IMG/VR virus record: IMGVR_UViG_3300034524_000090
Span: 1-64,000 of that record
DNA: 64,000 bases
Strand: one strand, 5' to 3'
From: a virus
How positions within the stretch are numbered: position 1 is the stretch's first letter; each line of letters begins with the position of its first letter. The translations under genes were made by a program, and so were the position numbers. The notes beneath the pieces are model-generated. The model saw only the letters and a list, made by a program, of their open reading frames with translations. It had not been told where the DNA came from and did no database searches. This document shows, piece by piece, positions 4,345 through 64,000 of the stretch.

Positions 4345-4603
4345 TTACATTATTCTCCCCTTGTTTTTCTTTGTCTTGCAAAACATAATAAGTCACTACA
4401 AAGTTATTTATAAGTTTATTAATAAAAGTCTCCGCCATTGTCGTTAAAGTAAAGACCCAAATAAAATAAATTATTGTCACGCCTAATGTTAGACCGAAAA
4501 TACTAATCGGGTTAAGACCGTTTATAATCAATAAGTTGAGTGTTTTAATTATAACGAAAACACATATTAGAAATACCGAAAATATCAAACTTAACCACAA
4601 CAT
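4322..4603 (-). CDS. putative membrane protein
   Basis: Two hydrophobic segments; RBS AAGGAG upstream. Confidence 0.6.
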   Translation of the reverse strand: MLWLSLIFSVFLICVFVIIKTLNLLIINGLNPISIFGLTLGVTIIYFIWVFTLTTMAETFINKLINNFVVTYYVLQDKEKQGENNVNADRNSR

Positions 4604-4644
4604 GCCTTTGTAAACTCCTTTTCTGCTTTTCTGTTTTTCTGTTT

Positions 4645-4857
4645 TTACAGATATTCTTCAGGATCGAAAACCCAATAATTTTTTGCAATAATAATTTGAT
4701 TGCCGTTTGTTTTAATGGCTATCGTATTACCGCTTGTTATCCATGTACCAGGAGTATCTGAAATTAATTCTTGCACCCATTCATTGATTTTCGCATCAGA
4801 AATATCAATACCACTAACTCTATCAAAGTCATTCGGAAACTCTGGCACAAGTTTCAA
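4645..4857 (-). CDS. hypothetical protein
   Basis: AAGGAGGT RBS before TTG start. Confidence 0.7.
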   Translation of the reverse strand: MKLVPEFPNDFDRVSGIDISDAKINEWVQELISDTPGTWITSGNTIAIKTNGNQIIIAKNYWVFDPEEYL

Positions 4858-4997
4858 AACAGTTACCTCCTTGATTTTTTAACTTTGGTATTTAATTTAC
4901 TTTGACTCTTTTCGACATTTTTTACTGCGATTTAACAAAATTATTTTTGTGTAATAATATACACCTCCATTTTTGTTTTTTTAGGAAGAGGGGGATC

Positions 4998-5012
4998 AGG
5001 GAATAACTCAAA
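4998..5012 (+). repeat. 15-bp direct repeat copy 1 (AGGGAATAACTCAAA)
   Basis: Identical to 7496-7510. Confidence 0.85.
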
Positions 5013-5016
5013 TATA

Positions 5017-5044
5017 ATAATATCACTTTTTTATTACCACGCAA
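5017..5044 (-). promoter_or_regulatory. putative leftward promoter
   Basis: TTGCGT-16 nt-TATTAT with extended -10 TG. Confidence 0.45.
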
Positions 5045-5160
5045 GCCCTATTAAAACCTATTTTAGACTTTTTTGGTTGATTAATTATCGTTTTTTTGGT
5101 TTTTGATAACGTATCTTATTTTTTGCCCTTTTTTCTTTGTTTTTTGCATTAAATTACAAT

Positions 5161-5189
5161 TTGTATTTTGTCTAAATTTTTTGTATAAT
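5161..5189 (+). promoter_or_regulatory. sigmaA-type promoter for the sigma-like gene
   Basis: TTGTAT-17 nt-TATAAT, followed by AGGAGG RBS and ATG 5233. Confidence 0.65.
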
Positions 5190-5232
5190 TATCTACACAT
5201 ACTAAAATTTTTACCAACAGGAGGAATAATCA

Positions 5233-5721
5233 ATGTACGACTTTAATCAAATTATAGCAATTATTTCGCCTTATGTCAAGAGTTACCTTAAAAAAAAATG
5301 CAAAAAATATCGTCTAAATTTTAATGACACTTATGAGTATTTTTTATTGATTTTACTAGAGGAACTTGATAAAACTGGTAATTTTTCTGGTTTTTATCAA
5401 GTAAATATTAATAATTTATATCATACCGTTATGGGGCGTCTTAAAAAATACATTAGCGACAACATTCAATACCAAAAACACATAATTTTATCCGAAAATC
5501 TTGATAACGTAAAAAGCCACGATAAAGACTTTACGGAAGAAATTAACCTAAAAGCAGACTTAGAAAAAATCTTAACTCCCCTTGAGTTTTATATTGTCAA
5601 CATGAAATATAATCATGGGTTAACTAACACAGATTTGGCCCAAAACCTTGGACTTTCAGTCAGAACAATAGAACGCTACTTGGCTCAAATCAGAGAAAAA
5701 TTAAAAGACTATTTTGCGTGA
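5233..5721 (+). CDS. small sigma-70-family (ECF/group 5-like) factor or region-4 HTH regulator
   Basis: C-terminal LTPLEFYIVNMKY.HGLTNTDLAQNLGLSVRTIERYLAQIREKLK is a sigma region 4 HTH; 162 aa. Confidence 0.75.
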   Translation: MYDFNQIIAIISPYVKSYLKKKCKKYRLNFNDTYEYFLLILLEELDKTGNFSGFYQVNINNLYHTVMGRLKKYISDNIQYQKHIILSENLDNVKSHDKDFTEEINLKADLEKILTPLEFYIVNMKYNHGLTNTDLAQNLGLSVRTIERYLAQIREKLKDYFA

Positions 5722-5950
5722 ATATTACCCCACCTTCTAGAATACCCTTTAGAGCCTCATATTTGGCTTCTGAGGGGTTTTAAACTTTGGGGATATATGT
5801 TTATACCCCCCTGCGTTTTATTTAATTTTCTAGGGCATTTTAGAGGCCCTTGTATTCCGTGGGAACTTTCACATGCGGATTCTTTGTTTATGCAAGACTA
5901 ATTTTGGCTTTTACTTTTTCCCTTTCAACAGGAATTTTATGTAATAGGGG

Positions 5951-5972
5951 GTACGCCTCTTTTGAGGCGTAC
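5951..5972. other. GC-rich hairpin (possible terminator)
   Basis: GTACGCCTC-TTTT-GAGGCGTAC, perfect 9-bp stem. Confidence 0.6.
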
Positions 5973-6470
5973 TTGTGCTTTATTAAATTCTATGGAGTAT
6001 TACGAAGTAATACGACATAGAATTTAATAAAACTTCAAGTCTTATAAGACTCTATAAGACTTATAAAGGCTTATTATATTATATTATATATAGCCTTATT
6101 AGATCTTAGATCTTATACGTCAATAGATCTTATATGTCAGTATTAATATTTATAGACGTATATGTCTTTTTGTTTTTTTATTTTTTATTATTTTATTTTT
6201 TTATTTACCCAAGGTAAGTTTAATATATTAAGGCATTACTCCATTTCATTTCGTAATGCCTTAATATATTACACATATCCCCAAGATATTACTTCGTAAT
6301 ATCTTGGCGATATGTTTTTTTTTTTTTAAGTTTATTAAGATCTATATGGCTTATTATATATTATAATATATAAGCCATATAAGTCTTATTAGATCTATAA
6401 GACTTATAAAATCTAGATCTATATAAGCCTTATTATTATATATTATATTATATAAGCCATATAGATCTTA
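5971..6470. repeat. AT-rich array of long palindromes and short repeats; candidate replication origin or recombination locus
   Basis: Hairpins 5979-6031, 6221-6271 and 6273-6315; 19-bp inverted repeat 6336-6354/6452-6470; reiterated AGATCT, TATAAGAC and GGCTTATTATAT units; T-rich tract 6166-6206; no ORF. Confidence 0.8.
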
Positions 6471-6483
6471 ATTGTGGATCTAA

Positions 6484-7338
6484 TTAAGCCAGAATACTAT
6501 CGTATTCTGTCTTAATTAGATCCCAATTCGCGTTTAGATAAACTTGGGTGGTTCGTAATGAGCTATGGCCTAAAAGTTCTTGGGCTACTTTGATATTGCC
6601 TCCTTTGACCAAAAAATGTGTAGCAAACGTATGTCTGAAAATATGTGGGTGAACGTTTGGAAAATATTTCTTAACCATGTACTCAAAATTTCTTGGAGTA
6701 ATAGACTTTTTGGTTTTATGGTTTTCAAATAAAAACTTATCTGGTTTAGTTTGTTTAAGATATTCTTGCAATAATTGTTCTATTTCTGGATGAAGGACGA
6801 TTTTCCTTGTTTTATTCCCTTTACCTTTGATTATCATGATTTTATAAGCGAAATTTATGTCTGATACTTTTAGGTTACTTAATTCGCTGATTCTTATACC
6901 TGTGTAAAGTAAAATTTTAAGTGCCAATTTGTCTCTAAGGTTATTAATCTTGTTAATTAACTGGTTTGCTTTTTCAAAGTCTATAATTGGCGGCACAGGA
7001 TCTTTTTCGTCTTTGAGAAAGTTAATATTTTTAAGCAACTGTATTGTTTTATTGCTATTAAACTCTATATCTGCCCATTGATAAAAAGATTTCAGACTGG
7101 CAATTTTGCGGTTAATAGTTGTTATATCCAGTTGTTTGTCATGTAGACTGTTAATAAAAGCCTGTATATCTTGTCTTTGAATATCTAGTATTGATTTTGT
7201 TCCGAGGAAGTTAATAAATTGTTTTAAGTCTACGCCATAGTTAGTGATTGTGTGAGGTGAATAGTTGCGTTGGTTTTTTAGATAATCCAAAAAGTCACCT
7301 ACCAGTTTAACATTTTCTGAAAAAATTTTTGAAAACAT
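6484..7338 (-). CDS. XerC/XerD-like tyrosine recombinase
   Basis: N-terminal SAM-like domain, TGIRISEL (R), KGKGNKTR (K), HPHIFRHTFAT (HxxR), LLGHSSLRTTQVY (H, Y). Confidence 0.95.
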   Translation of the reverse strand: MFSKIFSENVKLVGDFLDYLKNQRNYSPHTITNYGVDLKQFINFLGTKSILDIQRQDIQAFINSLHDKQLDITTINRKIASLKSFYQWADIEFNSNKTIQLLKNINFLKDEKDPVPPIIDFEKANQLINKINNLRDKLALKILLYTGIRISELSNLKVSDINFAYKIMIIKGKGNKTRKIVLHPEIEQLLQEYLKQTKPDKFLFENHKTKKSITPRNFEYMVKKYFPNVHPHIFRHTFATHFLVKGGNIKVAQELLGHSSLRTTQVYLNANWDLIKTEYDSILA

Positions 7339-7350
7339 TGACTTACCCCC

Positions 7351-7379
7351 TTGACAGACATAATTTGGTGTGTTATATT
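7351..7379 (+). promoter_or_regulatory. sigmaA-type promoter toward the packaging genes, overlapping a probable divergent recombinase promoter
   Basis: TTGACA-17 nt-TATATT; adjacent inverted repeat TTTGAT-N6-ATCAAA at 7384-7401. Confidence 0.7.
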
Positions 7380-7495
7380 ATACTTTGATTAACTCATCAA
7401 AAAGTCAACATAAAATTTTTTTCTAAATGCTGGCGGTATTTTTGCATTTCTAGGCTATATTATATACTAGTGAGGGGGCAATGTAAAGTTTTTTT

Positions 7496-7510
7496 AGGGA
7501 ATAACTCAAA
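7496..7510 (+). repeat. 15-bp direct repeat copy 2 (AGGGAATAACTCAAA)
   Basis: Identical to 4998-5012. Confidence 0.85.
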
Positions 7511-7576
7511 ACAATAAGCGTTATCCTGAATATTAGTCAGGATTCTTTCTTGTTAATATTTTAGCTAGTTTGGGGG

Positions 7577-8542
7577 ATGGGGATGAAAATCATTGAAGCA
7601 ACAGGAGGGAAGTCTAATAAACAAATCAGCATTACTGAGGAGATTGCGCTTAGGCGGCAAATAACCGAAAAAGAACGAGAAAACGAAGAACTAAAACAGT
7701 TACTTGAGAATTATAAAACTCAAGTAAAACAATTGACGGGGGAACGAGATGACTTAATAAGACAATTAAAAAACACTCAAAATCAGTTAAATTCTTTTCT
7801 GAAAGAACGAGAAAAATTTCTTGAGGAAAAAGAGCGGTTAATTCAAACCAGAAATTCGTTACAAAATCAACTTCGTGAATTACAAACTGAGTTGCATAAT
7901 TATGCAGACAAGGTTAAAAAATTACAAAAAGAGAATGAAGAACTTAGGCAGTTTAAAGAGCAGATAGAAAAGCATAATGGCGAGATTTTGGGTGATATTG
8001 ATAATTTACAATCAATGGATGAAGATTTAATAGTCTCATTGTTAACCCCTGCTGAATATAAAATTTATCAACACCGTAAACAAAAATATCTTGATGAATT
8101 TGAAATAAATTCTTCTTCGGATTTGATTTTATTACAAGATACATTATTTCATGAGATTATGCATGTAAGACTTTTACAGCAGAAATATCAAGATCCCAAA
8201 GCTGATGTTTTAAAACAGATTGAAGAATGTGTCGGTAGAATCCAAAAAAATTTAGAGGCTTTAGGTATGCTGAGAAAGCAGAGGTTAACACAAAAAGAAC
8301 AGGTAGAAGCATCGATTGCAGACCTGATCATGCAGTTTGACAAGGAAAAATTACTGCATAAGACAGAATTGTATACTGAAGAAGAACAGAGAGAAGCTTT
8401 ATTAAAACAAGAGCGAGATAAAGAACTTGTAGACTATGAGAGTGCTGTTAAAAAATTCCATGAAGTCTTTTTGCAAGCCCCCGTTGTCGATAATACGGAT
8501 GGGGTTGAGATAGATGGCGACACCGAAGAAGTTGTTGAGTAA
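7577..8542 (+). CDS. coiled-coil protein, candidate terminase small subunit
   Basis: Long heptad-rich N-terminus; immediately upstream of and overlapping terL. Confidence 0.5.
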   Translation: MGMKIIEATGGKSNKQISITEEIALRRQITEKERENEELKQLLENYKTQVKQLTGERDDLIRQLKNTQNQLNSFLKEREKFLEEKERLIQTRNSLQNQLRELQTELHNYADKVKKLQKENEELRQFKEQIEKHNGEILGDIDNLQSMDEDLIVSLLTPAEYKIYQHRKQKYLDEFEINSSSDLILLQDTLFHEIMHVRLLQQKYQDPKADVLKQIEECVGRIQKNLEALGMLRKQRLTQKEQVEASIADLIMQFDKEKLLHKTELYTEEEQREALLKQERDKELVDYESAVKKFHEVFLQAPVVDNTDGVEIDGDTEEVVE

Positions 8543-12338: not shown

Positions 12339-12712
12339 ATGGGACGAAGAAAACAATAGGGTGGCATTTTATTGCTGATTTGAGTTTTTGTCATTATAAC
12401 ATATATGCCGCAAAAGATTTAAAAATATTGTGTCAATATGTTGTAAGTTTGGCTGGTATGCATCAAATAGCTGATTGTGCTGTTACGGTTATTGATGGTG
12501 ATAATTCTGGTAGTAGTTGTTTGATATGTATTGTGCCTTTACAAGAGTCACATTTGTCGGTACACACTTGGCCCGAATTAAGATATGTTTCTGCTGATTT
12601 GTATACTTGTGGTGATTATCAAAGGGGCTATATGGCGTTTAAATATTTAGTTTCTTGTTTTCAGGCAGAAAAGGTCAATATACAAGAAATAGAACGTGTT
12701 GCTCATGTTTAA
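12339..12712 (+). CDS. speD: S-adenosylmethionine decarboxylase proenzyme, N-terminus out of frame (recoded or pseudogene)
   Basis: LQESHLSVHTWPE...DLYTCG motif. SD AGGAGA plus ATG 12339 reads MGRRKQ-stop, while the conserved KTIGWHFIADL N-terminus is in the -1 frame. Confidence 0.8.
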
Positions 12713-51644: not shown

Positions 51645-52742
51645 ATGGGGATTATGGCTAATGTTCATTATTTAGAACTACTGGCCTATATTGAAGAATA
51701 TATTGATGTAGAAAAATTGCTTTATATGTTAGGGGCCAAACACGTTAAAGTCTATGGTAGTAATATTAGGTCTGAGTGCGTGATTCATGGCGGTGATAAT
51801 GTTTTAGCTTTTAGTTATGATTTAAATAAGAAGGTCTGGAGTTGTTTTTCTAATAATTGTGGTGAAGGTTATAGGCGTAATCTTTATGATTTAGTATATC
51901 TTTATTTGTTAAAACAAAATAGTGCTCCTCCTACTGAGAAAGAGGTTTTTACTCTATTATTACAAGCCACTGATGTAAAAATTGAATTAGATGAGATTGA
52001 GTTTGGCTTTAGTAAGCCCATACAAGATAAGTTTGATAATATTTTATTTGCCACTAGGGTTAAACAACGGTACAATAAAAAATCGACAAAAAATAATTTG
52101 TTGGCTCTTGACGAATCAATAATAAATTGCTACAATATAACTGTTCATCCTTATTTGATAAATCGTGGACTAACACCAGAAACTATCCAGTTTTTCGATT
52201 TAAGATATGCTCCTCAGGGCTTATCTGAAAAAAACACTAAAAATTTTCCAGGGCGAATTATTATCCCAATACGGTCTATAGATAATAAACTCTTGGGTTT
52301 ATCAGGTAGATTGGCTACTGATGATAAAAAAATAATTAAGCAGTACAGTAAATATAAGCATTTATATTCGTTTCCACGTAATTCTGTTTTGTATAATGCA
52401 AATCATGCATTACCCTACATTAAAAAAACGAAAGCAGTTATTTTGGTTGAAGGGTTTTTTGATGTTATAGGTTTATGGCAAAAAGATATTAAAAATGTAG
52501 TTGCGGCAATGGGTAATTCAATAACAATTCAACAGGTTCAAGATTTGTTACCATATTTAAATAAAGTCTATGTATGTTTTGATGGCGATAAAGGAGGGAG
52601 AGATGGGGTTAAAAAGGTTGCTAGGATTTTAGGTAGACTGTGTAGTATTTATAATGTTAGGTTGCCCGAAGGGAAAGATCCAGATGAACTTTCAAAGACT
52701 GAATTAGTACAGAGCATTTTACAAGCAAAGAAAATTATCTAA
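51645..52742 (+). CDS. dnaG: DNA primase
   Basis: C..H...C...C zinc finger, GRIIIPI, SGR, KY, LVEGFFDV, CFDGDKGG, GKDPDE TOPRIM motifs. Confidence 0.93.
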   Translation: MGIMANVHYLELLAYIEEYIDVEKLLYMLGAKHVKVYGSNIRSECVIHGGDNVLAFSYDLNKKVWSCFSNNCGEGYRRNLYDLVYLYLLKQNSAPPTEKEVFTLLLQATDVKIELDEIEFGFSKPIQDKFDNILFATRVKQRYNKKSTKNNLLALDESIINCYNITVHPYLINRGLTPETIQFFDLRYAPQGLSEKNTKNFPGRIIIPIRSIDNKLLGLSGRLATDDKKIIKQYSKYKHLYSFPRNSVLYNANHALPYIKKTKAVILVEGFFDVIGLWQKDIKNVVAAMGNSITIQQVQDLLPYLNKVYVCFDGDKGGRDGVKKVARILGRLCSIYNVRLPEGKDPDELSKTELVQSILQAKKII

Positions 52743-56515: not shown

Positions 56516-59500
56516 ATGGATTCTAACGTCTTAGATCTGCTACAAAGGCGTTATTTTCTAAAAGATGAAAATGGTAATCTTATAGAAAATTCTTGGGAAG
56601 AACTTTGCGCTAGAGTTGCCGAAAATATTGCCAGCGCAGAGACTTCTCTTGAAAATAAAGAGCGATATAAAGATTTGTTTTATAAGGCGTTAGTTAATAT
56701 GGATATGCTAGCTTCCAGTCCAGTATTGTTTAATGCCAATACTCCACTACAGCAATTAAGTAGTTGTTTTGTGGGCGAACAACCAATTTTAACTTCTGAA
56801 GGGTTTAAGCTAATTAAAGATATTAAGGTTGGAGATTTAGTTGTTACCCATCAAGGCAGATTACGTTCAGTTTTAAAGACTTCTAAGCGTTATACCGAAG
56901 AGACATTATATACAATTTCGGTTGATAAAATGTATAAAGATACTTTAAAGGTTACTGGTGATCATCCTATATTAGGGATAAAAAGAAAAGATCTTATATG
57001 TAAGCGTGCCCGTAATTTAATCTGCACAGGTAAATTAAATAAACGTTGTTTATCTCAACCTAAACAATATAAACATGATTGTGAAAGACTAGGTGAGCAA
57101 TTATTACCATATTGGATTAAAGCGGAAGATTTAGAAGTAGGCGATTATGTTGTTGTTGGTACTATAAAGGAAACCAAAGATATTGATTATATTCGGATTA
57201 GTGATTTTATACCTTGTGATGTGTATATTAAAGATGGAGACTTTATTAAAGTTGCAGGACGGCCAAATTATGGTAAAGAAATTCCAGATAAAATACAGAT
57301 TGATGAAGATTTTATGTATATTGTTGGCTTATATCTTGGCGATGGTAGTGTAGTTCATAAAGATTATAATGTATCAAGTTGTGTAGGCTTTAGTATTAAT
57401 TCTAATAGGAATGATGTAGTTGATAAAATATGTGATTGTATGTATAGGGTATTTAATCTTAAACCCAATATTCATAATTATCCTGAACAGAATACTATCC
57501 AGGTCAGGTATCATTCCTTAATACTTGGATTATTTTTTGAACAATTATTGGGTTCTTTTTGTGATAAAAAAAGAATTCCTGATTGGATTTTATATTTACC
57601 CGAATCTAAACTAAAAAGTTTATTGGAAGGAATTATGGATAGCGATGGTTATCATTATAAAAATGATGTTTATATTGTCATGTGTAATCGTGACATTATA
57701 GAAAAGTTGTGGCTTATTTTGTTGCGTTTAGGGATATTGGCTAATATAAAAGAATTACCTATTCCTAAAGGTGGCAACAAGACTCCTTACTTGCTTAATT
57801 ATAAAGTAAGTCATAATTCTCAACATATTAAACTTGATGATTATGTACTTTTTAGGGTTAATGATATATCTACAGATATTATATCTGACTATGTTTATAA
57901 CCTTGAAGTAGAAGAAGATAACACATATGTTGCCAATGGGATTGTTGTGCATAATTGTTTTATTATAGATATAGATGACAATATGGAAAGTATAGCAGAG
58001 GCATGGAAAGAAGCGAGTCTAATCTTTAAATCGGGCGGGGGTGTAGGTTTTAACATTAGTTCTTTAAGGCCCAAAGGGGCTTTGGTTAAATCTTCTAATG
58101 GCGAAGCATCAGGCCCTATATCGTTTATGAAGGTATTTAATACTATCGTTGAACAAGTTAAACAGGGTGGTCGTCGAAAAGGTGCAATTAAAGTTGATCT
58201 TAATGTTGAACATCCTGATATAATTGATTTTATCCATTGTAAAGATAATACTTCTGAACTTAATAATATGAATATATCGGTTTCCATTTCTGATGCTTTT
58301 ATGGAAGCTGTTAAAAATAACAAAGATTGGCCTTTAGTGTTTAATAATAAAGTATATAAAGTAGTAAAGGCCCGTGATCTTTGGGATGAAATTATTAAGT
58401 CGGCCTGGGCTACTGGCGAACCTGGATTATCTTTTAGGGATACAATGGATAGGGCTAATCCTAATCCACATTTGGGGCATGTGTGGGCCACAAATCCCTG
58501 CAGTGAGTTTGTTAATATCCCTTATTCAAGTTGTCTAACTGGAGATACTAAAGTATTAACATTAGAAGGTGTTCGAGAAATAAAAGATTTAGTAGGTACA
58601 AGTGGTTTTATTTTAAGTGAAAATAATAAGTTTAATAAGTATCAAAATGTAGTATTTAAAGGCGTAAGGCCAGTTTATGAAATTATATTAGAAGGCAATT
58701 TAAAAATACAGGCAACAAAAGATCATAAATTCTTTACTAATAATGGATGGAAGCCTTTAGAGGAAATTAAAAAGGGAATTAAAATTAAAACTAGATCGGG
58801 TTATCCGTTAGTTAGTATAGAAGATTATGATGAAGAATATGAGATGTATGGATGGATGCATGGTGACGGGTGGTTTACAGAAAATAGTGTTGGCATTTCT
58901 TTTAATGGTAAAGATGGAGATTTTGATGTAAAAGAACGGTTGTTGCCGATATTTCGTTCTGTTTTTGAAGCTAATAATATAAAACCATTAAAAGATGATT
59001 TATGTTCTTTTCAACTTCAGATAACCAATAAAAAGGCAATAAAAAAGTGTGAAGAATTGGGATTTGTTAAAGGTCATGCTGATAGTAAAAGGTTGCCAAT
59101 TAGTTTTTATACTTGGAATATTAAACAACAAATATCGTTTATAAGAGGTTTGTTTACGGCTGATGGGTATATTGGCAAGGGGAAAAATAGGGGTATTATT
59201 TTATGTTCTACTAGTCTTGTTTTACTTGAAGAAGTTCAAAAGTTTTTAGCATCTATTGGTATTCAAAGTAGAATTACTACGGCCTCATTTAAAACTTGTA
59301 AGAGGAAAGATCAGCATAAATTGATAATTAATAAAGAATCATCTTATATATTTTATAATGTTATTGGATTTTCTGGTACAGCAAAAAGAAATAAATTTAG
59401 TAATGAAGTTGTCTCGAAAATATATAAAGACAAAGACTTTTTAGAGGTTATCGATATTAGATATGTTGGCAATAAAAGTGTTTTTGATATTATAGAAGTT

Positions 59501-60916
59501 GAACAAACTAATAGTTTTTATGCCAATGGTTTATTAGTTCATAACTGTAACTTAGCCTCAATTAATCTTGAAAATATGGTTGAAAATGGTGAACTTAATT
59601 GGGAAAAGGTTGAATATTATACAAGACTAACGGTACGCTTTTTGGATGATATGATTGATGTTAATAAATTACCATTGAAAAAGATTGAAGAAGTTACTAA
59701 ACTTATTCGGCCTATAGGTTTGGGTACTATGGGCTATGCCAATATGTTATATAAGTTAGGCATCCCTTATGGCTCCCAAGAAGCTGAAAATCTAACAAAA
59801 TTACTCTATGAATTTATCTATGAGACAGCTCTAGATGAATCTCAAAAGTTGGCTGAAGAAAGAGGTGTTTATCCTGGTTGGAAAGGCTCAGTATGGGAAC
59901 AAAAAGGCATTAAAGTACGTAATGCTAATTTAATGTCGATAGCTCCTAATGGCTCTATTAGTTTTATTGCCCAAACTACAGGTGGTATTGAGCCTGAATT
60001 TGCTTTAGTTTATCAACGAACTACTAACGAAGGGGTTAAATATTTTGTTTGTAATAAGGTCTTTAAGAAGGTATTACAGGAAAATGGTTTGTATTCTGAA
60101 GAACTTTTAAAAGAAATTTTTGAAGCAGGAGGATCAATACAGGAACTAGATTTGCCTCAACAATTAAAAGATATTTTTGTTGTAGCTCATGATCTTGATC
60201 CTTATAAACATCTAAAGACATTGGCTGTAGTACAGAGATATGTCGATATGGCTTGTTCGAAAACTATAAATCTACCCTCCTCTGCTACACCTGACGTGGT
60301 AGGAGCTATTTATATGAAAGCCTGGGAATTGGGCATTAAAGGGGTTACTGTATATAGAGATGGTTGTAGACCCAATCAGGTTTTAGCTACTGGTGCAACT
60401 ACTAAGGTTGAACAAGAAAAAGGTCAGGATAATAATAGTCGTGGTTACATTATTCCTGCTAAACAAAAAGCCAAAGGAATTAGAACTAAACTTTCTACAG
60501 GTTGCGGTTCTTTGTGGCTTTCTGCTTTTGCTGATGAAGATGGTAATATAATTGAAGTGTTTACAGATATTGGCCGTGGTAATTGTATTAGTAACACACA
60601 GGCACTTTCCAGAATGATTAGTCTTGCTTTGAGAGGAGGGATTAAATTAGAAGATATTATTGAGCAGTTACAAAGCGCTTGCACCTGTCCAAGTTATGCT
60701 GTTGCCAAAGCTACAGGTAAAGGAGTTTCTCCTGGCAAGTCTTGTCCTTCTGCTATTGCTGTTGCTTTAAAAGAATTACAAAAAGAATTTAAGCCCAATA
60801 TTGAAAAAGAAACTAAAGTTGTTGTTAAAACTTTATGTCCTCAATGTGGTAATGAATTAGTGTCACAGAGCGGATGTTGGCAATGTAATAACTGTGGTTA
60901 TAGTAAATGTGGTTAA
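56516..60916 (+). CDS. nrdJ: class II (adenosylcobalamin-dependent) ribonucleotide reductase with two inteins
   Basis: SPVLFNA, QLSS|CF, GGGVG, QGGRRKGA, TNPCSE, CNLASINL, IAPNGSIS; TSCPD-like C-terminal domain (KSCPSAIA) and Zn ribbon; spliced product about 731 aa. Confidence 0.93.
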   Translation: MDSNVLDLLQRRYFLKDENGNLIENSWEELCARVAENIASAETSLENKERYKDLFYKALVNMDMLASSPVLFNANTPLQQLSSCFVGEQPILTSEGFKLIKDIKVGDLVVTHQGRLRSVLKTSKRYTEETLYTISVDKMYKDTLKVTGDHPILGIKRKDLICKRARNLICTGKLNKRCLSQPKQYKHDCERLGEQLLPYWIKAEDLEVGDYVVVGTIKETKDIDYIRISDFIPCDVYIKDGDFIKVAGRPNYGKEIPDKIQIDEDFMYIVGLYLGDGSVVHKDYNVSSCVGFSINSNRNDVVDKICDCMYRVFNLKPNIHNYPEQNTIQVRYHSLILGLFFEQLLGSFCDKKRIPDWILYLPESKLKSLLEGIMDSDGYHYKNDVYIVMCNRDIIEKLWLILLRLGILANIKELPIPKGGNKTPYLLNYKVSHNSQHIKLDDYVLFRVNDISTDIISDYVYNLEVEEDNTYVANGIVVHNCFIIDIDDNMESIAEAWKEASLIFKSGGGVGFNISSLRPKGALVKSSNGEASGPISFMKVFNTIVEQVKQGGRRKGAIKVDLNVEHPDIIDFIHCKDNTSELNNMNISVSISDAFMEAVKNNKDWPLVFNNKVYKVVKARDLWDEIIKSAWATGEPGLSFRDTMDRANPNPHLGHVWATNPCSEFVNIPYSSCLTGDTKVLTLEGVREIKDLVGTSGFILSENNKFNKYQNVVFKGVRPVYEIILEGNLKIQATKDHKFFTNNGWKPLEEIKKGIKIKTRSGYPLVSIEDYDEEYEMYGWMHGDGWFTENSVGISFNGKDGDFDVKERLLPIFRSVFEANNIKPLKDDLCSFQLQITNKKAIKKCEELGFVKGHADSKRLPISFYTWNIKQQISFIRGLFTADGYIGKGKNRGIILCSTSLVLLEEVQKFLASIGIQSRITTASFKTCKRKDQHKLIINKESSYIFYNVIGFSGTAKRNKFSNEVVSKIYKDKDFLEVIDIRYVGNKSVFDIIEVEQTNSFYANGLLVHNCNLASINLENMVENGELNWEKVEYYTRLTVRFLDDMIDVNKLPLKKIEEVTKLIRPIGLGTMGYANMLYKLGIPYGSQEAENLTKLLYEFIYETALDESQKLAEERGVYPGWKGSVWEQKGIKVRNANLMSIAPNGSISFIAQTTGGIEPEFALVYQRTTNEGVKYFVCNKVFKKVLQENGLYSEELLKEIFEAGGSIQELDLPQQLKDIFVVAHDLDPYKHLKTLAVVQRYVDMACSKTINLPSSATPDVVGAIYMKAWELGIKGVTVYRDGCRPNQVLATGATTKVEQEKGQDNNSRGYIIPAKQKAKGIRTKLSTGCGSLWLSAFADEDGNIIEVFTDIGRGNCISNTQALSRMISLALRGGIKLEDIIEQLQSACTCPSYAVAKATGKGVSPGKSCPSAIAVALKELQKEFKPNIEKETKVVVKTLCPQCGNELVSQSGCWQCNNCGYSKCG
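56765..57955 (+). mobile_element. intein 1 with LAGLIDADG homing endonuclease (397 aa)
   Basis: CFVGEQPI...TGDHP...GLYLGDG...GIMDSDG...VYNLEVEEDNTYVANGIVVHN|C. Confidence 0.93.
58532..59545 (+). mobile_element. intein 2 with LAGLIDADG homing endonuclease (338 aa)
   Basis: CLTGDTKV...TKDHKF...GWMHGDG...GLFTADG...FYANGLLVHN|C. Confidence 0.93.
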
Positions 60917-61627: not shown

Positions 61628-62428
61628 ATGCAGTTAAATACAGTTTATAATATGGATTGTAGGCAAGGATTTTGGGAATTAGAAAAAGAAAATTTAAAAT
61701 TTGATCTTATTCTGGCTGATCCGCCTTATTTTTTAGACCGCAGTAAGACTATTAAGTTTAAAAATCGTAAAGATATAAACTCTCCTATTGAGTGGGATAC
61801 TTTTACAAGTGAGGATGAATATTTAAAGTGGACTGCCGATTGGCTAAATGAAGCTATTAATCTTCTTTCTCCTACTGGTCAATTAATTTGTTACTGTCGT
61901 GCTGAGTATATAAGCGATATAATTTCAATGATAAAGCAAAAAATAAACCACAAATGTACTATGTACTATGTAAAAACTAATCCTCCCCCTTCGGTGCGTA
62001 AACGTAATTACGTGTCAACGGTGGAGACTCTTCTTTGGTTCGTTAAAAATTCAACAAAATATACGTTTAATTTTCAACGACAACAAGATATGCGTAATGC
62101 TTTTATATTACCAATCCCAGGAGGCAAAGTAAGAAAGCAATATCCTCACCCTACCATGAAACCTTTACAACTTAGTGAGCATCTTATTAAAGTCCATACT
62201 AATGAAAATGATAATATTTTAATTCCGTTTGCTGGTGTTGGTACTGAATGTGTGGCCGCAAAAAGACTAAATAGGAATTTTGTAGGTTTTGAGATTGACC
62301 CTTATTATTATGAATTATGCCTTAAACGGCTTGGTATTAATAATATTGGTATCAATAATAATACGATAGAAAGGGCTGATACCAATGAACGACAAAAAAA
62401 TCCAACTAGGGAGGCATCTGTTGGTTGA
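61628..62428 (+). CDS. DNA N6-adenine/N4-cytosine methyltransferase (beta class)
   Basis: DPPY catalytic motif precedes HPTMKP and PFAGVGT SAM-binding motif; GFEID. Confidence 0.92.
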   Translation: MQLNTVYNMDCRQGFWELEKENLKFDLILADPPYFLDRSKTIKFKNRKDINSPIEWDTFTSEDEYLKWTADWLNEAINLLSPTGQLICYCRAEYISDIISMIKQKINHKCTMYYVKTNPPPSVRKRNYVSTVETLLWFVKNSTKYTFNFQRQQDMRNAFILPIPGGKVRKQYPHPTMKPLQLSEHLIKVHTNENDNILIPFAGVGTECVAAKRLNRNFVGFEIDPYYYELCLKRLGINNIGINNNTIERADTNERQKNPTREASVG

Positions 62429-62756
62429 GGTAGTTTTAAAAGAAGAAAATGCTGATATTCTTGACAACATTAATCAAATTAAAAAGGAATTAATTGAAGC
62501 TGTAAGTTATACGGGCGCAACAATTAAAGATGTTAGTTTTGTAAGATTTGAGCCTCAAGGAGTTAGTGGCGTAATTGTGATTTCTGAATCTCATTTTTCT
62601 GTTCATACTTGGCCTGAATACAATACAGCCGTATTTGACTTTTTTACCTGTGGTAATTGTAATCCTTGGAAAGCCATATCGTATTTAGTTGAATCATTGG
62701 AGGTGAAAGATTTGGTTGTCCATGAAGTGCCGAGGTATATGCCAATAGCTGTTTGA
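62385..62756 (+). CDS. speD: S-adenosylmethionine decarboxylase proenzyme
   Basis: LGRHLLVE, FEPQGVSGVIVISESHFSVHTWPE, DFFTCG. Confidence 0.92.
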   Translation: MNDKKIQLGRHLLVEVVLKEENADILDNINQIKKELIEAVSYTGATIKDVSFVRFEPQGVSGVIVISESHFSVHTWPEYNTAVFDFFTCGNCNPWKAISYLVESLEVKDLVVHEVPRYMPIAV

Positions 62757-62790: not shown

Positions 62791-63951
62791 ATGTATGTTC
62801 CTTTACACGTCCATACCGAGTATTCGACATTAGACGGCATAGTTAAAGTACCAGATTATGTCAATAAAGTTAAAGAGTATGGATTGGAAGCTTGTGCTGT
62901 AACCGATCATGGTAATCTTGGTAGTGTTGTTAAATTTTATACTGAGTGCCGCAAAAATAATATTAAGCCTATTATTGGCTTAGAAGCTTATATTGTAGAT
63001 GATGTCAATGTTAAAGAACGTGATATGGCTCATATTGTCCTTTTAGCTAAGGACAAAGAAGGTTATTTAAATCTATTAAAGCTTAATAACTTATCTTTTC
63101 AGTATTTCTATTATAAACCACGCTTGGATTATAAGATTTTAAAAGAATACAGTAGTGGCCTTGTATGTATGTCAGCTTGTATGGCTGGACATATTCCTTC
63201 TGCCCTTCTACAAGGCGAGCATGATCGGGCCAGATATTATATTAACTTACTTTTGGAGATTTTTAAGGATGATTTTTACCTGGAAATCCAGGACAACAAT
63301 CTAGAAGATCAGTTCCTTGTTAATTCTCTTTTAGCCTCTTTGGGCAAAGAAAAAGGTGTACCTTTAGTGGCTACCAGTGATATACATTATCTTAATCCTG
63401 AAGAACAGGAAGCACATTTGGCGATTTTAGCCATACAGACGAAAAAAACCTTACAACAAATTCTTGATGGCAAAGATTTTTCAGGATTTGTTAATTCAGC
63501 CGATTTCTGTTTAAAGCCTTATGAGGTATTTAAAAATAACCTACAACAGTATCCAGAGGCTATAGCTGCCACTACCGTTATAGCTGATAAATGTAATCTT
63601 ACTATAGATGAGTTAGAAAATCCTAAGCCACTTTTTCCTGTTATTCAGTTGCCCAATAATATCACACCTGAAGAATACTTAACTAGATTAGTTAAATCAT
63701 CTTTATTACAACTAGATTTGCCGATAGACGATTACCAGAAATATTTTGATCGACTTCAGTATGAGTTGGAGGTTATTAATAAGCAAGGATTTGCTCCTTA
63801 TTTTTTGGTATTGAAGGATATAATTGATTTTTGTAGACGTGAAGGGATAAGGGTCGGACACGGCAGGGGTTCGGCCAGCGGTAGTTTAGTGAGTTATTTA
63901 TTAGGGATTACAAGAGTAGATCCGATTAGGCACGGTCTGTTATTTGAGCGT
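62791..63951 (+). CDS. dnaE: DNA polymerase III alpha subunit, 5' exon
   Basis: HVHTEYSTLDG PHP domain, TDHG, GLEAY, GRGSASGSLVSYLLGIT..DP...LLFER; homology stops where FLNP is expected. Confidence 0.93.
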
Positions 63952-64000
63952 AGTGTAGGTTGCGCTCGTTAAATCCCGTGAATTCGGTAAAAGCCCAAAC
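63952..64000 (+). mobile_element. 5' end of a group I intron in dnaE (truncated by window)
   Basis: Exon ends GAGCGU, which pairs with GCGCUC (63962-63967) giving the U-G splice-site wobble of P1; followed by GUGAAUUCGGUAAAAGCC, a P3/P4-like segment. Confidence 0.75.

Follow-up and report, generated by a model that had tools for sequence, protein, structure and literature searches.

A candidate bidirectional replication origin with strand-polar hairpins between the converging sigma-factor and recombinase genes of a 120-kb tailed phage

What is the role of a crowded set of long palindromes, short repeats, and a T-rich tract standing between the 3' ends of two converging genes of a tailed phage? 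The question is raised by the IMG/VR virus record IMGVR_UViG_3300034524_000090, a single contig of 119,804 bp with about 33% GC, the first 64 kb of which (64,000 nucleotides) make up the window; here a 762-bp non-coding gap at 5722-6483 separates a sigma-factor gene on the + strand from a gene on the - strand for a Xer-type tyrosine recombinase, designated Xer1. An earlier note on this DNA had proposed that the locus works as extruded hairpins on opposite strands, for example as a bidirectional origin or priming site or as a folded single-stranded substrate for the adjacent recombinase, and had pointed to the hairpin promoters of phage N4. In our estimation the chances are about even that the segment from 5979 to approximately 6472 is the bidirectional replication origin of the 120-kb phage. 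Origin activity is read here from the sequence, namely from a strand-composition switch independent of gene orientation, the most easily melted DNA of the genome, repeats private to the locus, a flip of hairpin polarity, and a phage-encoded DnaB/DnaG/DnaE replisome. In large uncultured phages an origin can hardly ever be placed; in this case sequence alone yields a candidate of 500 bp.

Hairpin polarity, repeats, and the T tract

The leftmost hairpin, H1 (5979-6031, + strand), is built of a 16-bp stem, a tandem GA/GA mismatch, and 7 further pairs (GTATTAC/GTAATAC) closed by a GAA loop on the + strand, with single-strand DNA folds of -15.9 kcal/mol (z -10.4) on the + strand and -15.4 kcal/mol on the - strand. 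H2 (6215-6277, - strand) has a perfect 19-bp stem at 6221-6271, reaching 23 of 25 pairs with the outer ones, and carries on the - strand the 13-nt loop GAAATGAAATGGA together with a purine mismatch (-15.7 kcal/mol on +, -16.5 kcal/mol on -), while the adjoining H3 (6273-6315, - strand; 19 of 20 bp) shows a C-GAA-G loop and a G.G mismatch on the - strand (-14.0 kcal/mol on +; -16.8 kcal/mol with z -12.9 on -). The 15-nt core of H1, TATTAC-NNN-GTAATA, is contained in H3 reverse-complemented (100%), which places the GAA loop of H3 on the - strand. H5 (6476-6523, - strand), which was absent from the list of the earlier note, has 22-nt arms paired at 21 of 22 positions around a 4-nt centre, a C-GATA-G loop on the - strand, and a purine-purine mismatch (-16.6 kcal/mol on +, -19.4 kcal/mol on -), and it overlaps the stop codon and the final 12 codons of the Xer1 gene. 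H1, H2 with its 6221-6271 stem, and H3, as well as the T tract and the two repeat blocks described below, were all recovered where that note had placed them. The folds of the four hairpins lie at about -14 to -19 kcal/mol with z from -9 to -13, and for every fold none of 200 dinucleotide-preserving shuffles folded as well. A genome scan (at least 14 pairs, at most 2 mismatches, loops of 3-15) gave 15 non-overlapping matches in 119,804 bp, four of which are within the 545 bp of 5979-6523, including the three longest of the genome (23, 23, and 21 pairs); H3 is missing from this list because it overlaps H2.

At the positions which break the dyad symmetry of H1, H2, H3, and H5, i.e., the loops and mismatches, one strand carries a purine and the other a pyrimidine in 27 of 27 cases, the purine strand being + for H1 (7 of 7) and - for H2 (11 of 11), H3, and H5. 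The probability of this by chance is about 1e-7 with free strand choice and about 1e-6 when the duplicated loop of H1 and H3 is counted once. In all four hairpins the purine strand also gives the more stable fold (by 0.5, 0.8, 2.8, and 2.8 kcal/mol), its mismatches are G.A or G.G, and the apices have the common form (A/T)TAC-[G...A]-GTA(A/T), represented by C-GAA-G in H1 and H3, C-GATA-G in H5, and C-G(N11)A-G in H2. The purines of H1 contrast with the locally pyrimidine-rich + strand, while the pyrimidines of H2 and H3 follow the local T-richness. The polarity switch is located between 6031 and 6215, across the left repeat block and the T tract. An origin composed of repeats, an AT-rich tract, and palindromes is of a known kind; strictly strand-polar hairpins around a composition switch were not found described and appear as a new aspect, the literature searched for a strand-polar four-hairpin design being that on ssiA/ssiB, RSF1010 oriV, and GCGAAGC-hairpin origins, with the phage-family literature not included.

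Between H1 and H2 stand the left repeat block, block A (6037-6165), and the T tract. Block A holds the palindrome AGTCTTATAAGACT (14 bp), units of TATAAGAC, an AT-only spacer enclosed by a GGCTTAT...AGCC inverted repeat, and TAGATCT in three units, among them a tandem repeat of 17 nt at 6107-6139. The T tract (6166-6206, + strand), proposed as the unwinding element, has 34 T, 5 A, 1 G, and 1 C in 41 nt, and the AT-richest 200 nt of the genome (GC 18.5%) begin at 6008. On the other side of H3, beyond a T13 homopolymer (6316-6328, + strand), block B (6334-6472) forms a 139-nt quasi-palindrome with four AGATCT units and further units of TATAAG(A/C)C around AT-only spacers, folding at -30.9 and -34.0 kcal/mol (z -8.2 and -9.0). 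The inverted repeat that closes block B is present as had been claimed, while its length is 21 bp when perfect, or 32 nt at 88% (6334-6365/6441-6472), and not the 19 bp given previously. Seven of the 28 AGATCT copies of the genome are inside 6101-6463, three at 6101-6130 and four at 6338-6468. The repeats have an irregular spacing (7, 17, 53, 24, and 48 nt). The locus further holds five of the six genome copies of TAGATCTTA, four of nine of TATAAGAC, and both copies of ATTACGAAGTAAT, and the composite repeat units have zero copies elsewhere in the genome. The densest GATC cluster of the genome is found here as well (9 in 450 bp versus at most 6 elsewhere), and H5 has GATC and TAAG(C/A)C words in common with block B.

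In blastn comparison with phage and plasmid records the region gave only low-complexity matches of 48 and 59 nt; the Rfam scan returned only sub-threshold miRNA-precursor matches in block B, typical of any long AT hairpin, and the tRNA scan returned none. Matches of the 17-mer GTATTACGAAGTAATAC in 23 IMG/VR stretches were assigned to chance, these stretches having no other likeness to positions 5000-8000 of the window. An open reading frame (ORF) at 6162-6299, read from the T tract and encoding 45 aa rich in Phe, Ile, and Leu, was ruled out as a small toxin, its ribosome-binding site being absent. A hairpin telomere resolution site was also ruled out, as no long palindrome is perfect through its centre and the recombinase is far below the size of protelomerases, which have roughly 440-640 aa.

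The locus is no assembly artefact, a possibility which the earlier note had named as a danger to its proposal: two studies, with four runs between them, gave contigs that match the window, no difference being listed across 5501-6723, and one X1 contig covering 4000-9000 spans the locus. No RNA dataset was listed among the runs that contain the sequence. X1 may be the source sample of the window, and the four runs are thus not fully independent. In X2, X4, and X5 the de Bruijn contigs are all interrupted at a single place, the T13 run (6315-6346), where short X2 contigs vary by 0, 1, and 2 bases (6316-6328), which is either real length heterogeneity or sequencing slippage. A separate observation concerns the 32-nt stretch 5741-5772 just 3' of the sigma gene, which is also present in further contigs from three or more runs (records 3, 13, and 19), at 4x depth in X1, and which recurs inverted about 55 nt away in one contig. 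It may be a shared terminator or a small mobile element; a CRISPR spacer was ruled out by its differing flanks.

Strand-composition switch and the proposed initiation

The cumulative GC skew of the genome has its minimum at 6529 and its maximum at 76255; these extremes alone say little, since the genes change direction close to each of them. Operon orientation and arm were therefore entered as separate factors in a logistic model of G versus C, fitted to every G/C site, and the coefficients were 0.27 for arm and 0.15 for orientation, the orientation-only model being worse by 60 log-likelihood units (lnL) and the arm-only model by 19 lnL. The best left switch is at 6300, with all positions of 5900-6500 within 2.5 lnL and with 5800 and 6600 worse by 2.7 lnL, while the fit deteriorates by 8-9 lnL for the divergent promoter gap (4900-5200) and by 16 lnL for 7300. 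A cruder version of the model agrees. On the right the switch falls at about 76.2 kb, where a second recombinase gene has its 5' end. Among the genes pointing against their arm, the GC skew at third codon positions (GC3 skew) is -0.36 for sigma (n=47), +0.27 for Xer1 (n=82), and -0.09 for a left-arm + strand gene of 423 aa (n=101), where the arm means are -0.21 and +0.27. The GC-skew check which the earlier note had recommended favours the origin half of its proposal: the asymmetry, separated from gene orientation, switches inside the locus, and the flip of hairpin polarity falls within the support interval of this switch (5800-6600). Because the leading strand is usually G-rich, 6.3 kb is read as the origin and 76.2 kb as the terminus, and with this assignment nearly all genes are co-directional with the forks. 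The two-factor analysis can be reused for other phages in which all genes are co-oriented.

At the other extreme of the skew a second Xer-like tyrosine recombinase gene (L190:12389-13300, genome 75389-76300, - strand), the product of which has 27% identity to Xer1 over 147 aa, coincides with the maximum at 76255, the inferred terminus. G004, the closest complete relative and a complete circular assembly, has a matching layout with the same two-arm plan, in which the skew minimum lies beside the sigma/Xer/terminase cluster and the maximum (75952) at its second Xer gene (75800-76714). This looks like a phage-borne terminus or dif-type arrangement.

The proposed initiation would proceed as follows. 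An initiator would bind the AGATCT / TATAAG(A/C)C repeats of blocks A and B, the intervening 41-nt T tract would melt, and the DnaB-like helicase of the phage would open the bubble outwards, whereupon the palindromes could fold on the exposed strands. On the left the + strand, as the leftward leading-strand template, would carry the stable H1 with its C-GAA-G loop and tandem G.A pairs, and on the right the - strand, as the rightward leading-strand template, would carry the stable forms of H2, H3, and H5. A primer on the + strand at H1 extends leftwards and a primer on the - strand at H2, H3, or H5 rightwards, so that the stable purine-looped form would lie on the leading-strand template of each outward fork. 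For the DnaG-type primase the folded hairpins might provide entry or priming signals confined to one strand, or they might be sites of the initiator, in the manner of ssiA/ssiB and of the G4 hairpins. The replication set encoded by the phage includes RecA-like and DnaB-like proteins, a DnaG/Toprim primase (window 51645-52742), and a split DnaE Pol III alpha. The boldest form of the proposal, in which long palindromes serve as strand-specific single-strand signals in a double-stranded DNA (dsDNA) phage origin, a DnaG-type primase or helicase loader starts both leading strands, and the symmetry-breaking purines are selected, seems rather improbable to us as a whole; if true, it would mean that an IncQ/G4-style priming design has been transferred to a 120-kb tailed phage. 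If a signal for priming or loading is indeed what the hairpins provide, the logic by which small plasmids and single-stranded DNA (ssDNA) phages are primed would be linked to a large dsDNA phage with a bacterial-type replisome, and a compact origin for vectors in the host of the phage would become available.

The closest analogue of the locus appears to be the ssiA/ssiB pair of the plasmid RSF1010 oriV. In the available portions of PMC8567376 and PMC13037366, initiator binding and helicase unwinding at this oriV expose two 40-nt hairpin signals, each encoded once and on complementary strands, and ssiA contains a CCGAAGG mini-hairpin. As far as these portions describe it, RSF1010 oriV shares with the phage locus the repeats beside an AT-rich stretch, the mirror-oriented hairpin signals on complementary strands, which outward unwinding would expose, and the mini-hairpin of C-GAA-G type, here in H1 (+) and H3 (-). 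There is, however, no sequence similarity between the two, and the RSF1010 signals described there measure 40 nt, have short stems, and are recognised by the RepB' primase, whereas the phage has a DnaG/Toprim primase, stems of 19-25 bp, and four polar hairpins which flank both sides of the repeats and the T tract. The locus presents what is expected of an ssi-type pair, i.e., signals on complementary strands and a G...A-closed purine loop with a C-G closing pair; a RepB'- or RepC-like gene was not found in the protein-family scans of the phage, so that the locus is not counted as a member of the IncQ type, while its primase would fit the G4 type. The DnaG-dependent origin of phage G4 contains GCGAAAGC, and G...A-closed purine-loop hairpins in ssDNA are thought to be recognised by DnaG primase, according to the available portion of PMC13037366. 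The likeness to what is described there consists in hairpins of this type together with a phage-encoded DnaG-type primase, while G4 is an ssDNA phage whose origin is always single-stranded and the present phage has dsDNA in which hairpins would form only after unwinding or cruciform extrusion. In lambda ori and plasmid oriV, clustered short repeats adjoin palindromes and an AT-rich unwinding stretch where the strand composition switches, and the same ensemble is seen here: the repeats are confined to the locus, the AT-rich stretch is adjacent, and the position is that of the composition switch, the last point resting largely on sigma and Xer1. The origins of lambdoid phages and theta plasmids are, in contrast, usually in or beside the initiator gene and have regularly spaced repeats, whereas here two short words are irregularly interleaved and the palindromes are much longer.

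Only a part of what the earlier note had inferred is retained. The bidirectional origin or priming site is supported by the skew switch inside the locus, the polarity flip from H1 to H2, the phage's own DnaB-like, DnaG-type, and DnaE proteins, and the RSF1010 precedent in the form in which the cited portions give it. The N4-type hairpin promoters fail because no virion RNA polymerase was found in any scan, the 2735-aa ORF being a tape measure protein and the largest ORFs encoding, besides this protein, tail fibre or structural proteins and ribonucleotide reductase (RNR). Promoter hairpins of N4 have short stems and would be expected upstream of early genes, in contrast to the 19-25 bp stems between gene 3' ends found here. 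The likeness to integron attC or CTX attP is not sustained either: the phage is a tailed dsDNA phage with terminase, portal, and capsid genes, Xer1 reaches 114.8 bits against a cut-off of 265 bits for integron integrases, and the stem mismatches are symmetric purine-purine pairs, not extrahelical bases. H1 to H3 fail as a folded recombination substrate because their 3- or 13-nt centres misfit a crossover region of 6-8 bp.

Evidence against an origin and competing explanations

A number of observations weigh against an origin at this locus. When the called ORFs of 90 aa or more, together with a few shorter ones, were scanned with Pfam, PHROGs, and NCBIfam, no initiator gene was found, so that the cognate initiator of an iteron-type origin is missing from this set, and the replication genes of the phage lie 42-60 kb from the hairpins. 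DnaA boxes with up to one mismatch number 18 in 64 kb versus 22.5 expected, and none is within 5722-6483. The fine placement of the composition switch depends mainly on two short genes, sigma and Xer1, and their composition could be explained by recent acquisition. Among relatives, the skew of G004 switches at an ordinary divergent gap, 2 kb off its repeats, the AT-rich box-bearing gap of G001 is 3-5 lnL worse than the adjacent gap to the left, and the GC3 skew of sigma is positive at six loci and near zero or negative at five; this comparative evidence is mixed and was not counted as support. The relatives compared are distant (TerL identity at most 49%), and in 13 of 14 related loci their sigma-like and Xer ORFs overlap at the 3' ends, while in L104/G004 (the closest relative, TerL 48-49%) these ORFs are 73 nt apart, which makes the 762-bp region lineage-specific. 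No hairpins of comparable size were found between these ORFs among the 14 loci. Relatives carry instead a tract of 20-28% GC followed by lineage-specific repeats upstream of sigma, and the only element in common is a duplex box, ATTAC-N3-GTAAT with 7-bp arms and the spacer TTA. Two ATTAC-TTA-GTAAT boxes, 40-45 bp apart, lie in the AT-rich tract of L121, L122, and L132, the first two being near-identical, while in the present genome the 13-bp box is limited to the apices of H1 and H3, with GAA or TTC as spacer. The sharing of a duplex box points to protein recognition of double-stranded DNA rather than of a folded loop. The earlier note had looked to relatives for loop and mismatch identity preserved along with the stems; in these distant ones neither stems nor loop identity is kept, and three loci keep the box with the spacer TTA, which, for relatives of TerL identity up to 49%, would weaken the idea of an ancient loop identity. 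A search of IMG/VR for ATTAC-N3-GTAAT pairs gave 62 stretches, only three of which belong to this phage family, all of them already-known loci. The winged helix-turn-helix (wHTH) protein encoded at 70305-70823 was ruled out as the binder of the box, since its recognition helix is nearly alike in relatives with and without the box.

The strand asymmetry of the hairpins also has an RNA-level explanation, because in all four of them the purine-loop strand is the sense strand of the nearest upstream gene (sigma on +, Xer1 on -), and the polarity flip is explained equally well in this way. The hairpins would then belong to the 3' ends of converging transcripts, H1 to the tail of the sigma mRNA and H5, H3, and H2 to that of the Xer1 mRNA, where their role would be to stabilise these ends, to terminate transcription or make it pause, and to prevent the converging polymerases from meeting, with the repeats and the T tract being incidental. 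Such a role is consistent with the position between gene 3' ends, with the strong RNA folds of the purine strands (-22.6 to -29.8 kcal/mol), and with a terminator scan of 4400-7800, which gave five sites versus a shuffle mean of 1.5 and in which H3 plus T13, as a good intrinsic terminator, and 5949-5974 score on the + strand; Xer1, moreover, has a good promoter (7487-7459) and no canonical terminator. Nevertheless we consider it unlikely. On the purine-loop strand no U run follows H1(+), H2(-), H3(-), or H5(-), H1 comes after a proper terminator, namely the GC-rich hairpin 3' of the sigma gene (5949-5974, + strand; six GC among its 11 pairs, with a T-rich tail; folding as DNA at -10.6 kcal/mol with z -8.2), and perfect AT-rich stems of 19-25 bp with 3-nt loops are an unusual terminator form. 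The convergent pair of the relatives overlaps at the 3' ends without hairpins, and the clustered repeats, the 41-nt T tract, and the orientation-independent skew switch are left unexplained. A recombination locus of the cer type, to which we give a similarly low probability, is compatible with an origin and does not exclude it. It would consist of H5 as the core and of the adjoining 150-450 bp of repeats and palindromes as accessory sequences for architectural proteins providing resolution selectivity, and its task would be the resolution of multimers, whether of a plasmid prophage or of replication products, or else the circularisation of an injected genome with terminal redundancy. For H5 taken by itself the assignment as the site of Xer1, a candidate dif/lox-like core, has better prospects, although still somewhat below even, and it is compatible with an origin in the remaining region. 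In the available portion of PMC5357621, single-recombinase Xer systems (XerS/difSL) and large plasmids with their own recombinase keep the site beside the gene, as the Xer1 gene has the inverted-repeat H5 directly beside it, and the cer site of ColE1 has a 30-bp core working with the accessory proteins ArgR and PepA. H5 is single-copy (with up to 4 mismatches only chance-level matches were seen) and has block B's words, Xer1 is plainly XerA/C/D-like with visible catalytic motifs, Xer stands beside the terminase genes in 17 of 166 TerL-profile loci, and a ParM-type segregation gene with RuvB- and RuvC-like genes fits a dimer-forming circular replicon. A dif/lox-type core calls for inverted arms of about 11-13 bp on either side of a 6-8 bp crossover region, and H5 yields arms of 11-12 bp with a centre of 6-8 bp only when its inner palindromic bases are assigned to that region; its symmetry extends through the centre, the 22-nt arms leaving an asymmetric core of only 4 nt, which is unusual for a crossover region, and unlike difSL it overlaps the 3' end of the gene. 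Furthermore, H1 to H3 misfit core-site geometry, relatives keep the recombinase without such a region and have their inverted repeats on the other side of the gene, and the composition switch is not accounted for.

A packaging (pac) site is distinctly less probable. Here the small terminase would bind both sets of GATC hexamers and cut between them, as in P1, where, in the available portion of PMC10028697, 4 + 3 TGATCA/G hexamers flank the cleavage site and methylation gates cutting. The three AGATCT units at 6101-6130 and the four at 6338-6468 similarly flank a 200-bp centre, GATC being nowhere denser in the genome, and the region precedes the genes for a TerS-like protein and TerL by 1.1 kb; the phage encodes an N6/N4 DNA methylase, and its contig starts within a gene and has no terminal repeat, as expected of permuted or circular DNA. 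However, the P1 site described there lies inside pacA and needs Dam, IHF, and HU, whereas the phage cluster is outside the terminase genes with the Xer1 gene intervening, and the terminase is unrelated. The cluster is not kept in relatives with the same terminase module, and cutting there leaves the strand asymmetry of the hairpins and the skew switch unexplained. Very unlikely, too, is a centromere, at which an adaptor of a ParM-type system would bind the repeat arrays and couple DNA to filaments. The genome has an actin-like protein (ALP)/ParM-like gene (70985-71836) followed by a small ORF, no repeat array was found beside it, and ALP homologues occur in four of the five related records searched. 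Type II centromeres, however, are arrays of short repeats directly beside the parM-like gene, while the locus is 65 kb from the ALP gene, its repeats have the irregular spacing given above, and the long hairpins and the T tract would be without a role. Least of all can we believe in a selfish or decaying palindromic insertion, i.e., an element resembling a miniature inverted-repeat transposable element or a recombination scar with no phage function beyond incidental termination. That the region is present in this lineage only, where the gene ends of relatives overlap, that it has no similarity to phage or plasmid records, and that block B is closed by terminal inverted repeats are in line with an insertion; but no part of it is copied elsewhere in the genome, the only piece that recurs in the sampled communities is an unrelated one of 32 nt (5741-5772), four runs from two studies give an identical sequence, and the 27 of 27 purine asymmetry with its flip argues for selection.

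Neighbouring genes, relatives, and further observations

The left neighbour of the putative origin, converging on Xer1, is the gene of a sigma-70/ECF-type sigma factor (5233-5721, + strand), recognised by Pfam Sigma70_ECF / r4_2 and by NCBIfam TIGR02937 (47 bits versus a cut-off of 42.9). The right neighbour, the Xer1 gene (6484-7338, - strand), encodes 284 aa matching Pfam Phage_integrase and Phage_int_SAM_1; its NCBIfam scores are 218.4 bits for XerA_Arch (cut-off 220) and 214.7 bits for XerC, and the alignment shows motifs with the expected catalytic R, K, HxxR, H, and Y. The + strand genes, at about 7.6-75.4 kb, include those of TerS-like protein, TerL, portal, capsid, the 2735-aa tape measure, and tail fibres, followed by RecA-like, DnaB-like, DnaG/Toprim primase, RNR, dUTPase, methylase, split DnaE Pol III alpha, endolysin, and exonuclease genes and the actin-like ParM-type gene. 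The - strand genes, from 75.4 kb round to about 4.9 kb, include the second tyrosine recombinase, DUF932, RuvB-like, SNF2, ThyX, Mom-like, C5 methylase, UDG, RemA-like, RuvC-like, and nucleoside kinase genes. One ORF spans the contig junction by one codon and a terminal repeat is absent, which makes the assembly compatible with circular or permuted DNA.

Single-protein searches with Xer1 or TerL gave no relatives in viral or metagenome contigs, while the closest TerL relatives, P0002 (78%) and P0003 (72%), are in Logan contigs. The TerL profile search yielded 166 loci, 17 of which have the order Xer(-) / TerS-like(+) / TerL(+), and in all seven loci tested the + strand ORF converging on Xer is a sigma factor. 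Upstream of sigma, L104:1640-1800 (the same as G004) carries at least six tandem TTCATACTAGAATAT units and a GAGTAATTACTC palindrome, and other relatives differ there. Several relatives have inverted repeats of 10-13 bp with spacers of 8-13 nt immediately before the TerS-like gene, in the intergenic stretch that also contains the Xer promoter (L109:7220-7256, L110:5393-5431, L114:1959-1993, L119:7186-7221, and L117:6991-7023; for example GGCTATTTAGAG...CTCTAAATAGCC and CTTCTGATAATA...TATTATCAGAAG), which are candidate Xer or terminase sites. The equivalent gap of the window (7339-7576) has no such inverted repeat.

Several other features of the genome were recorded. The DnaE Pol III alpha gene (window 62791-63972, L190:1154-3999) is split into a PHP/N-terminal part, a LAGLIDADG endonuclease ORF at 64154-64924, and the remainder at 64921-66999, suggesting an intron or intein-type insertion. 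Similarly, the RNR ORF (56516-60916, 1466 aa) matches in two separate stretches with helicase- or terminase-like segments between them, which suggests one or more inteins. A segregation module of the kind found on plasmids (L190:7305-9099, genome 70305-72099) is made up of the wHTH protein, the actin-like ParM-type protein, and an ORF of 95 aa. Among the four of five related records with ALP homologues, IMG/VR labels three as provirus and one with direct terminal repeats, and the phage may exist as a plasmid prophage or phage-plasmid. Two separate genes resemble S-adenosylmethionine decarboxylase (window 12380-12712 and 62385-62756). Some palindromes are avoided genome-wide (observed/expected: ACATGT 0/41, CCGG 2/92, CGCG 8/92, and GGATCC, CCATGG, and CGATCG 0/10 each), which is probably restriction avoidance, fitting the three or more DNA modification genes of the phage, and GGCC is over-represented (248 versus 92 expected). 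The host of the phage is probably a member of Clostridia.

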